Source: an uncultured Aquirufa sp.
Lineage (GTDB): Bacteria > Bacteroidota > Bacteroidia > Cytophagales > Spirosomataceae
Assembly: GCA_964618445.1 (NCBI GenBank)
Contig: CAZUAZ010000001.1
Location: 3,577 to 67,576 of the forward strand
DNA length: 64,000 nucleotides
Direction: 5' to 3'
Under the pieces are notes generated by a model that was not told where the DNA came from, searched no databases, and saw nothing but the letters and a program-made list of their open reading frames with translations. The translations under genes and the position numbers were made by a program. Positions 19,312 through 19,783 of this stretch are shown piece after piece. Position 1 is the stretch's first letter. Each line of letters begins with the position of its first letter.

Positions 19312-19384
19312 CGCGGGGTGGAGCAGTTGGTAGCTCGTTGGGCTCATAACCCAAAGGTCGTCAGTTCGAGTCTGGCCCCCGCTA
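19312..19384 (+). tRNA. Initiator tRNA-fMet (CAT), CCA not encoded
   Basis: Cloverleaf CGCGGGG/CCCCGCT with a 1:72 mismatch, D-arm GAGC/GCTC, anticodon stem TTGGG-CTCATAA-CCCAA with three G:C pairs, and T-loop TTCGAGT. Confidence 0.96.
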
Positions 19385-19425
19385 CTGAGTAAAAAGGTCT
19401 TCAATCGAAGACCTTTTTACATTTT
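19385..19425 (+). repeat. Direct repeat copy 1 (41 bp identical to 19743..19783), containing the terminator
   Basis: CTGAGTAAAAAGGTCTTCAATCGAAGACCTTTTTACATTTT occurs twice, 358 bp apart. Confidence 0.95.
19389..19420. terminator. Bidirectional terminator after tRNA-fMet
   Basis: Perfect 14-bp stem GTAAAAAGGTCTTC-AATC-GAAGACCTTTTTAC. Confidence 0.85.
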
Positions 19426-19446
19426 ACACTAACCACTTTTATAATC

Positions 19447-19689
19447 ATGTATGTATCTTATGCACTTTATTCGGAAAAATTCGATATCCTATATATTGGG
19501 TATACCCAAGATTTAATCAGCAGATTCCACTCCCATAATTCATTGGCAAAGAGTGGATTTACAGTGAAATACAGACCGTGGAAAGTGATTTATGTTGATT
19601 TTTTAAAAACTAAAATAGCGGCTATGCGAAGAGAAAAAGAATTAAAATCGAATAGAGGTAGAATGTTTCTCCGAGATTTAATCAAATAG
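19447..19689 (+). CDS. Small stand-alone GIY-YIG nuclease family protein
   Basis: YALYS...LYIGYT.DL..R...HN...FT.KYRPW...A..RE.ELK pattern. Confidence 0.9.
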   Translation: MYVSYALYSEKFDILYIGYTQDLISRFHSHNSLAKSGFTVKYRPWKVIYVDFLKTKIAAMRREKELKSNRGRMFLRDLIK

Positions 19690-19742
19690 CTCGTGGACTC
19701 ATATCCGTCAGCTGACGGACGTCCGTTCCCGTCTGGCCCCCC
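19687..19742 (+). pseudogene. Degenerate 3' fragment of tRNA-fMet with a palindrome replacing part of the anticodon arm
   Basis: TAGCTCGT-GGACTCATA[TCCGTCAGCTGACGGA]CGTCCGTTCCCGTCTGGCCCCC aligns to tRNA 19331..19380. Confidence 0.85.
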
Positions 19743-19783
19743 CTGAGTAAAAAGGTCTTCAATCGAAGACCTTTTTACATTTT
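19743..19783 (+). repeat. Direct repeat copy 2 with duplicated terminator (19747..19778)
   Basis: 41/41 identical to 19385..19425. Confidence 0.95.

Follow-up and report, generated by a model that had tools for sequence, protein, structure and literature searches.

A GIY-YIG nuclease gene and a palindrome-bearing tRNA copy form a probable selfish cassette 3′ of the initiator tRNA gene in Aquirufa

Organization of the locus

We analysed a stretch of 64,000 nucleotides (hereafter the window, meaning the whole stretch) from an uncultured Aquirufa sp., a freshwater bacterium of the Bacteroidota (GenBank assembly GCA_964618445.1, contig CAZUAZ010000001.1, positions 3,577 to 67,576 of the forward strand). 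In the window, a gene encoding an 80-residue GIY-YIG nuclease is located directly 3′ of the initiator tRNA gene and is followed by a partial copy of the same tRNA. The best explanation of this arrangement is a selfish nuclease-plus-palindrome cassette of ~358 bp that resides directly 3′ of the initiator tRNA gene, a reading that we consider probable rather than secure.

The locus has the order initiator tRNA, terminator, GIY-YIG open reading frame (ORF), partial tRNA copy, and identical terminator (Table 1). A preliminary description, made by reading the DNA without database searches, had given this order together with a 41-bp repeat and a 358-bp period, and all of it was confirmed by ARAGORN, Rfam, Pfam, and a repeat search. 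The tRNA-Met(CAT) is the sole tRNA found by ARAGORN in the 64-kb window and belongs to the initiator type, because its position 1 is unpaired with position 72 (C opposite U) and its anticodon stem is of the GGG/CCC form. The two copies of the 41-bp block match exactly with a start-to-start spacing of 358 bp, and an exact repeat at such a scale cannot be of chance origin. Both copies contain a hairpin with a 14-bp stem and then a T-run, and only the second copy satisfied the T-run rule of the terminator scan. A further repeat of 28 nt, which spans the copy of the T-arm and the acceptor strand, has 82% identity to the tRNA at an offset of 361 bp. The stop codon of the ORF (TAG, 19687–19689) is the TAG of the tRNA-derived D-stem sequence. 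The tRNA copy in the window does not include tRNA positions 1–19, so that it cannot form a cloverleaf. The host flank restarts at 19784, as placed by comparison with the empty site of another Aquirufa genome (G048). The preliminary description had also stated that the unit contains no integrase, and no integrase-like or recombinase ORF was found within ~2.5 kb of the cassette.

Table 1. Coordinates of the cassette, its target tRNA gene, and the neighbouring genes in the window
Feature	Coordinates	Strand	Basis or remark
Initiator tRNA-Met(CAT), intact, resident target	19312..19385	+	ARAGORN; Rfam tRNA model, 61 bits, E = 1.9e-12
Direct repeat copy 1 with terminator hairpin (stem 19389–19402 / 19407–19420)	19385..19425	+	Exact 41-bp repeat; inverted repeat
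21-nt leader from repeat copy 1 to ATG	19426..19446	+	Only 2 nt in the distant cassette L070, so not conserved there
80-residue single-domain GIY-YIG nuclease gene	19447..19689	+	Pfam PF01541, E = 3.5e-14
Copy of tRNA positions ~20–37 (D-stem 3′ strand to A37)	19687..19703	+	Sequence comparison; 2 mismatches in this genome
16-bp perfect palindrome TCCGTCAGCTGACGGA, in place of tRNA positions 38–48 (ACCCAAAGGTC)	19704..19719	+	Sequence comparison
Copy of tRNA T-arm and 3′ acceptor strand	19720..19742	+	Decayed here (4 substitutions, 1 deletion); intact in most relatives
Direct repeat copy 2 with terminator hairpin (19747–19778)	19743..19783	+	Exact repeat; empty site of G048 as comparison
Era gene, left neighbour	18311–19213	-	Family match
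LytTR-only protein (104 residues), right neighbour	19898–20212		Family match

The GIY-YIG nuclease

The 80-residue protein matched PF01541 with 53.3 bits against a cut-off of 22.6. The catalytic set of the GIY-YIG superfamily (two tyrosines, an arginine, a histidine, and a metal-binding glutamate) is present in it: Y5, Y16, R26, H30, and E63 are invariant in an 11-sequence alignment (A1), and in a 49-sequence alignment (A2) no variation was seen at Y16, H30, or E63, with Y5 and R26 retained in at least 90%. The set is thus intact. The ratio of nonsynonymous to synonymous substitution rates (dN/dS) ranged from 0.05 to 0.20 among the Aquirufa copies, and the nuclease is under purifying selection.

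An AlphaFold2 model of the protein was obtained with a predicted local distance difference test score (pLDDT) of 97.4. The entire 80 residues constitute the catalytic core; the joined DNA-binding domain for a long double-stranded site, which is a feature of homing-type enzymes, is absent. The closest solved structures by sequence profile were the UPF0213 protein BH0048 (PDB 1ZG2, E = 2e-13), EF2693 (PDB 1YWL, 7e-13), and the Slx1 catalytic domain (2e-7). By fold, BH0048, EF2693, and the Slx1 domain were again the closest, with template modeling (TM) scores of 0.56–0.74, and I-TevI, with its GIY-YIG domain of the homing type, and UvrC were far off (Foldseek E above 1). We therefore place the protein, on its profile and predicted fold, in the UPF0213/Slx1/Ssn branch of GIY-YIG proteins. 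No family match was found in NCBIfam or PHROGs. A search with the family profile returned 25,938 cluster representatives at E ≤ 0.001, including 6,215 at E ≤ 1e-10, and among the 150 best matches listed most are 80–130 residues long.

A conserved palindrome within the tRNA copy

The tRNA copy had been described as degenerate in the preliminary description. It is indeed a partial copy; it is more than a decayed one, because a conserved 16-bp palindrome, overlooked in that description, stands in for tRNA positions 38–48. The palindrome was found in all nine occupied Aquirufa loci that were checked (9/9), including G002, which has one imperfect copy, and G053, in which the centre CAGCTG is replaced by CGGCCG with the symmetry kept. 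The change in G053 is compatible with recognition either as a hairpin or as a duplex by a dimer. An identical palindrome is also present in L070, a locus of a distant lineage. In its own genome (a 2.15-Mb assembly, 81% complete), the palindrome occurs once, and the nuclease gene is likewise present in a single copy. The palindrome is part of the element and is probably the recognition element of the nuclease, the case for which rests on conservation, not on folding energy.

Variation of the locus across Aquirufa

A DNA search of 60 genomes of the genus located the Era–tRNA locus in 59, and 30 of the loci were read in detail. The preliminary description had suggested that empty sites and tandem units be looked for, and both exist. 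The site is empty in 19 of the 30 loci (tRNA, single terminator, downstream gene) and carries one unit in nine. The isolate A. echingensis PLAD-142S6K (G053) has three head-to-tail units with a period of 361 bp, and the third ORF is truncated. G014 retains an internally deleted remnant, in which approximately the first 33 bases of the ORF are joined to the right half of the palindrome. One of the single-unit genomes, G049, has a TAG at codon 8 of the ORF. Nonsense and truncated copies of this kind are typical of the decay of selfish genes, and the empty, single, triple, and remnant states represent a presence/absence polymorphism at a fixed site, as is characteristic of Seg-type homing genes. 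Presence is patchy even among genomes that are 98–99% complete. The tRNA sequence itself is unchanged between empty and occupied genomes, its first 74 nt being identical in 30/30 loci of the genus.

One further genome, G007, was read apart from these loci. It contains one ORF-bearing unit and four ORF-less pseudo-tRNA/terminator units. An island of 5.5 kb (L061:2900–8435) sits between the initiator tRNA and this array, and includes an ORF of 545 residues with a serine-recombinase-like N-terminal motif (motif reading only), the 3′ end of which overlaps the tRNA. The initiator tRNA therefore appears to be used by a conventional integrating element too.

Because tRNA 3′ ends are classical attachment sites and the island of G007, with its putative serine recombinase, occupies this very tRNA, the cassette might be thought of as the remnant of an integrase-borne island, in which deletion of most of the island would have left attL/attR-like duplications of the tRNA 3′ end as the repeats. 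We rejected this reading, to which we give hardly any credence: no integrase was found near any single-unit locus; the unit measures only ~358 bp and forms head-to-tail arrays; the repeat continues through the terminator, and the copy begins inside the D-arm and bears the conserved palindrome; and the G007 island sits between the tRNA and a cassette array that was already present. The position at an integration hot spot and the decoy-like copies of the tRNA 3′ part are all that could suggest, by way of speculation, that the nuclease and the crippled copies guard the attachment site of an essential tRNA gene, or that they form a small defence module. This seems very improbable, since the G007 island integrated at the tRNA despite the cassette and no partner genes are present; the family searches against NCBIfam and PHROGs, which did not extend to a defence-system library, also gave nothing in its favour.

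Inheritance and movement of the cassette

In a tree of Era, the product of the left neighbouring gene, all occupied sites fall within one clade of 16 genomes, which includes five empty sites, and the 13 genomes outside the clade are all empty. Within this clade, the cassette tree groups G055 with G071, whereas the Era tree groups G055 with G002, and the cassette and Era data each reject the grouping of the other (approximately unbiased [AU] test, p = 0.004 and 4e-5, for groups chosen after the trees had been seen). G055 and G071 are 98% identical in terminator 1 and 91% identical in the ORF, and only 86–89% in Era and 43–70% in the downstream flank; the exchanged tract thus comprises only terminator 1 and the ORF. 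Uncorrected proportions of synonymous differences (pS) deviate between the cassette and Era in both directions: 0.26 versus 0.48 for G000/G023, 0.28 versus 0.58 for G071/G055, and 0.74 versus 0.38 for G055/G002. The history of the cassette is thus decoupled from that of the flanking gene in both directions.

Two distant loci extend this picture. In L068 and L070, Era is 49% identical to that of the window, and the nuclease, which is located directly behind the initiator tRNA of its own genome, is 65–69% identical, that is, within the range found inside Aquirufa. The copy of the T-arm and the duplicated terminator of L070 are of the local type, with the palindrome unchanged. Therefore, the palindrome moves along with the ORF, and each host site supplies the duplicated tRNA 3′ part and terminator. 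The comparison thus indicates that the minimal GIY-YIG gene and the 16-bp palindrome are the element-borne parts and that the duplicated tRNA fragment and terminator are host-derived. As the T-arm, acceptor strand, and terminator to the right of the palindrome are duplicated local host sequence, the working tRNA gene is never disrupted. Taken together, the tree conflict, the decoupled pS values, and the L068 and L070 loci lead us to conclude that the cassette also moves.

A host locus inherited vertically would account for part of these data. According to this alternative, an Ssn-like or repair nuclease became fixed beside tRNA-fMet in the ancestor of Aquirufa, the repeats arose by local tandem duplication, copy number changed by unequal crossing-over and deletion, and the protein has a host function, such as the trimming of incoming single-stranded DNA that SsnA performs. 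Such a role is in keeping with the action of Ssn enzymes in transformation at the host level (PMC11893778), with the purifying selection on the protein, with the single copy in this genome, and with the restriction of occupied sites to one Era clade. It does not readily explain the patchy distribution in nearly complete genomes, the nonsense, truncated, and deleted copies, the decoupled histories of element and flank, the near-identical design behind the initiator tRNA of a lineage with only 49% Era identity, or the recurrence of the design at other tRNAs in other families (described below). We regard this alternative as unlikely, though worth keeping in mind. The comparisons show a cassette that undergoes gain, loss, tandem amplification, decay, and exchange between lineages, in every case beside a tRNA and with no integrase.

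Metagenomic contigs provide additional observations. Contigs from three other studies have ~99% identity to the window over Era, the tRNA, and the cassette, and ~95% from 19784 on, the first difference being the base directly after repeat copy 2; this suggests a possible recombination breakpoint at the right end of the cassette. In assemblies from four studies, the cassette is present as a separate contig of 377–388 nt bounded by the repeat. RNA runs contained a small share of the cassette words only, which has no bearing on expression either way.

The same design at other tRNA genes

Relatives of 33–40% identity in other families of the order have the same design at other tRNAs, which agrees with the suggestion of the preliminary description that homologues be sought downstream of tRNA genes: they were found directly after tRNA genes with matching copies of tRNA fragments. 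The cases are as follows: (i) at tRNA-Pro, the ORF is followed by a full copy of tRNA-Pro in which the D-arm is swapped for a G+C hairpin; (ii) at tRNA-Val, two tandem units are present, and the anticodon arm of the tRNA copies is swapped for a hairpin; (iii) at tRNA-Arg, the unit lies upstream of the tRNA, and a 5′ copy of tRNA-Arg bears a 20-base palindrome; and (iv) at tRNA-Ala, one unit lies 3′ of the tRNA. Adjacency to a tRNA was found in 8/9 relatives with E ≤ 1e-8, the exception being G007 with its intervening island. Among the loci of named genomes, a tRNA on the same strand lies 12–204 bp upstream in 14/24, and 3 more are cut by contig ends; the chance expectation of such adjacency is ~0.13% per gene.

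In one Cytophagales genome and one Flammeovirgaceae genome, a different tRNA with a CAT anticodon, which shares a 17-mer around the anticodon loop with the initiator, has the same 11 bases (38–48) swapped for a related hairpin with the same flanks. The replacement of the same 11-mer in two CAT-anticodon tRNAs suggests that a defined part of the tRNA sequence is the target.

Two further sets of loci were noted. In L074 (1–360) and L079 (1290–1440), arrays of 5′ pseudo-copies of a CAT-anticodon tRNA are located upstream of the intact gene; the pseudo-copies contain two different hairpins each, one in the D-loop and one replacing positions 38–48, and the nuclease ORF begins 12 nt past the tRNA. 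In G034, the 18-base palindrome CTGCCTGCCGGCAGGCAG, known from the tRNA-Arg copy of a distant cassette, has 12 copies in the genome, and the reversed control has 0. Three of these copies were inspected (L209:1501–1518, L211:1501, and L211:1951); one lies ~70 bp upstream of a tRNA-Leu, and a GIY-YIG ORF was not found near any of the three.

The tRNA copies of two distant loci, L011 and L012, fold as complete cloverleaves with one arm substituted (z about -4.5), and the tRNA copy may have an additional role at the RNA level in these distant relatives. More generally, the ORF could ride on transcription of the tRNA, the tRNA-like copy being a structure for processing or stabilizing the mRNA (RNase P, RNase Z, or non-stop control) and the palindrome preventing the copy from functioning as a tRNA. 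In all cases the ORF lies close to the tRNA and on its strand, its ATG overlaps the tRNA 3′ end in L011, and it stops inside the tRNA-derived copy, all of which, together with the two cloverleaf folds, would suit such a module. In the window, no cloverleaf is possible with positions 1–19 absent, and a strong terminator hairpin stands between the tRNA and the ORF. Moreover, the module would explain expression, not gain, loss, tandem arrays, or lateral exchange. As the sole explanation it is improbable; it is compatible with a selfish cassette and not exclusive of it.

Relation to Ssn nucleases and other systems

Of the published systems, the Ssn family and SegB of phage T4 come closest, and full-text literature searches gave no description of GIY-YIG cassettes with hairpin-bearing tRNA copies. 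Ssn enzymes are single-domain GIY-YIG proteins. They bind a hairpin repeat (NTS/SRM) that flanks the gene encoding them, and their cut in single-stranded DNA falls a few bases upstream of this hairpin (Chenal et al. 2025, PMC11893778). They have a host-level role in transformation, SsnA trimming incoming single-stranded DNA in Neisseria, and tRNA is not mentioned in the Ssn paper (PMC11893778).

For the comparison, NTS-flanked ORFs from a scan with the exact motif were used as stand-ins for SsnA (120 loci, 2 with a GIY-YIG ORF). The ORF in L171, which is flanked by exact NTS repeats, shares 37% identity (E = 3e-10) with the window protein. The family profile scored 63 and 60 bits on the NTS-linked ORFs in L170 and L171, versus 53 and 52 on the UPF0213 structures, values that are close to each other. 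Like the Ssn proteins, of which those flanked by hairpins are homologous to it, the window protein is a single GIY-YIG domain (80 residues here, roughly 90, or ~80–95, in the group), with the catalytic residues Y5/Y16/E63 in the positions of Y6/Y17/E64 of SsnA, and in both systems a G+C-rich palindromic hairpin occurs with the gene. Two genomic hallmarks of Ssn are absent: the flanking repeat of the window does not fit the SRM motif, and the hairpin is not dispersed, having one genome copy as opposed to hundreds in Neisseria. The window hairpin also differs in lying inside a partial tRNA copy, in a tRNA-resident cassette of variable copy number. The window protein is thus related to the Ssn enzymes, as judged by homology, and may work like them. 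As to the stand-in loci themselves, Ssn-type GIY-YIG ORFs with exact or near-exact NTS hairpins on their flanks are located at L170:6557–6868 and L171:833–1198, and among the loci listed by title the exact 28-nt NTS motif was found across many phyla, for example Dehalococcoidia, Planctomycetota, and Verrucomicrobiota.

SegB, a free-standing GIY-YIG homing endonuclease encoded among the clustered tRNA genes of phage T4, cuts double-stranded DNA at a 27-bp site that includes a conserved T-stem-loop motif (PMC2330249). It resembles the present system in that a GIY-YIG gene among tRNA genes shows presence/absence polymorphism between relatives and spreads by recombination (PMC2330249). SegB is a phage enzyme, whereas here an 80-residue core on a bacterial chromosome is associated with a palindrome-bearing tRNA copy and tandem arrays. 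The preliminary description had also drawn a parallel to the homing enzyme I-Ssp6803I; this parallel does not enter into the evidence.

Among the other relatives, the UPF0213 proteins BH0048 and EF2693 are PDB entries without a functional name, and Slx1 is a structure-specific nuclease that works with Slx4, with solved entries of 250–300 residues; for neither has a cassette with tRNA copies been described. Integrase-borne islands at tRNAs likewise give rise to a second copy of the tRNA 3′ part, with the tRNA gene itself kept intact. The present unit differs from them in having no integrase, in its size of 358 bp and tandem arrays, and in a duplication that starts in the D-arm, continues through the terminator, and is broken by the palindrome. 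IS200/IS605-type elements are also small, with ends set by DNA hairpins, and a single-strand intermediate is likewise proposed for the cassette, which does not have the HUH transposase of those elements.

Neighbouring features

The LytTR protein directly 3′ of the cassette is stand-alone, without a receiver or sensor domain, and varies from 45% to 96% identity across Aquirufa genomes. Divergence is uneven at the right end of the cassette: all four substitutions of the T-arm/acceptor copy relative to the tRNA are to C, yet the adjoining 41-bp repeat matches its partner exactly. A sigma-70-like promoter match at 19416–19445 (11/12) was not used because its -10 box ends one base before the ATG; a further reason for setting it aside is that the Bacteroidota promoter consensus differs from the sigma-70 type.

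Proposed mechanism and interpretation

The following mechanism could account for the selfish cassette. The nuclease would recognize the palindrome of its own cassette, most likely folded into a hairpin on single-stranded DNA in the manner of Ssn enzymes, and would nick beside it. The break would stimulate host homologous recombination across the tRNA/terminator repeats of 70–95 bp. Such recombination could delete the unit cleanly, leaving an apparent empty site, or could expand arrays and release a 358-bp circle, which could then re-enter an empty site by a single crossover in the T-arm/terminator homology and would yield exactly the structure observed. A GIY-YIG hydrolase is unable to rejoin DNA, and therefore host recombination or ligation would be needed. 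The cutting mechanism is inferred. The preliminary description had read the locus as a selfish unit that spreads or amplifies by cut-and-recombine; the comparative predictions of this reading held, and its cut-and-recombine step still has the standing of a proposal.

Several points weigh against the selfish cassette or against parts of this mechanism. The case rests on comparison; cleavage, expression, and transfer were not directly observed. The single-strand DNA folding of the pseudo-tRNA region in this genome is no more stable than that of shuffled sequence (z = 0.13 and -0.15), and the palindrome of the window, as single-stranded DNA, forms a weak hairpin only. It is therefore just as possible that a dimer binds the palindrome in double-stranded form. 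The SRM search motif, a regular expression derived from the degenerate motif as published, has no match in the cassette, and its 4 matches in the own genome, versus 3–8 in shuffles, are at chance level. Since tRNA and terminator are unaltered in the occupied allele, the locus agrees poorly with classical homing, in which that allele would be immune. The confinement of occupied sites to one clade means that one old gain followed by losses via repeat recombination could explain much of the pattern, and the single copies of the protein and the palindrome give no sign of recent spread within the genome. Finally, no circle or empty-allele joint was found among the metagenome contigs, none of which spans the repeat-bounded cassette.

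With these reservations, the selfish cassette may represent an autonomous mobile element of an undescribed class. In this broader proposal, the 80-residue nuclease and its cognate palindrome would target tRNA positions 38–48, insert beside the gene by single-strand nicking and host recombination, and duplicate the tRNA 3′ part and terminator so that the tRNA stays intact; the element would do so without an integrase, transposase, intron, or intein, and would move between distant bacterial lineages. We put this forward tentatively, judging it somewhat less than evenly probable.

If this proposal is correct, the cassette, with one 80-residue enzyme and one palindrome, would be among the smallest self-propagating DNA units known in bacteria, and would illustrate a route by which essential tRNA genes can be colonized without damage and without a recombinase of the element's own. 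It would also give a mobile-element role to part of a very large and almost uncharacterized protein family, and would broaden the recently discovered Ssn type, hairpin-directed single-strand nucleases that are of interest as tool enzymes. The particular value of this locus lies in its clear population series within a genus of which isolates have been sequenced: one Aquirufa isolate has three tandem units and other genomes are empty, so that copy-number change, circles, and transfer are directly testable.

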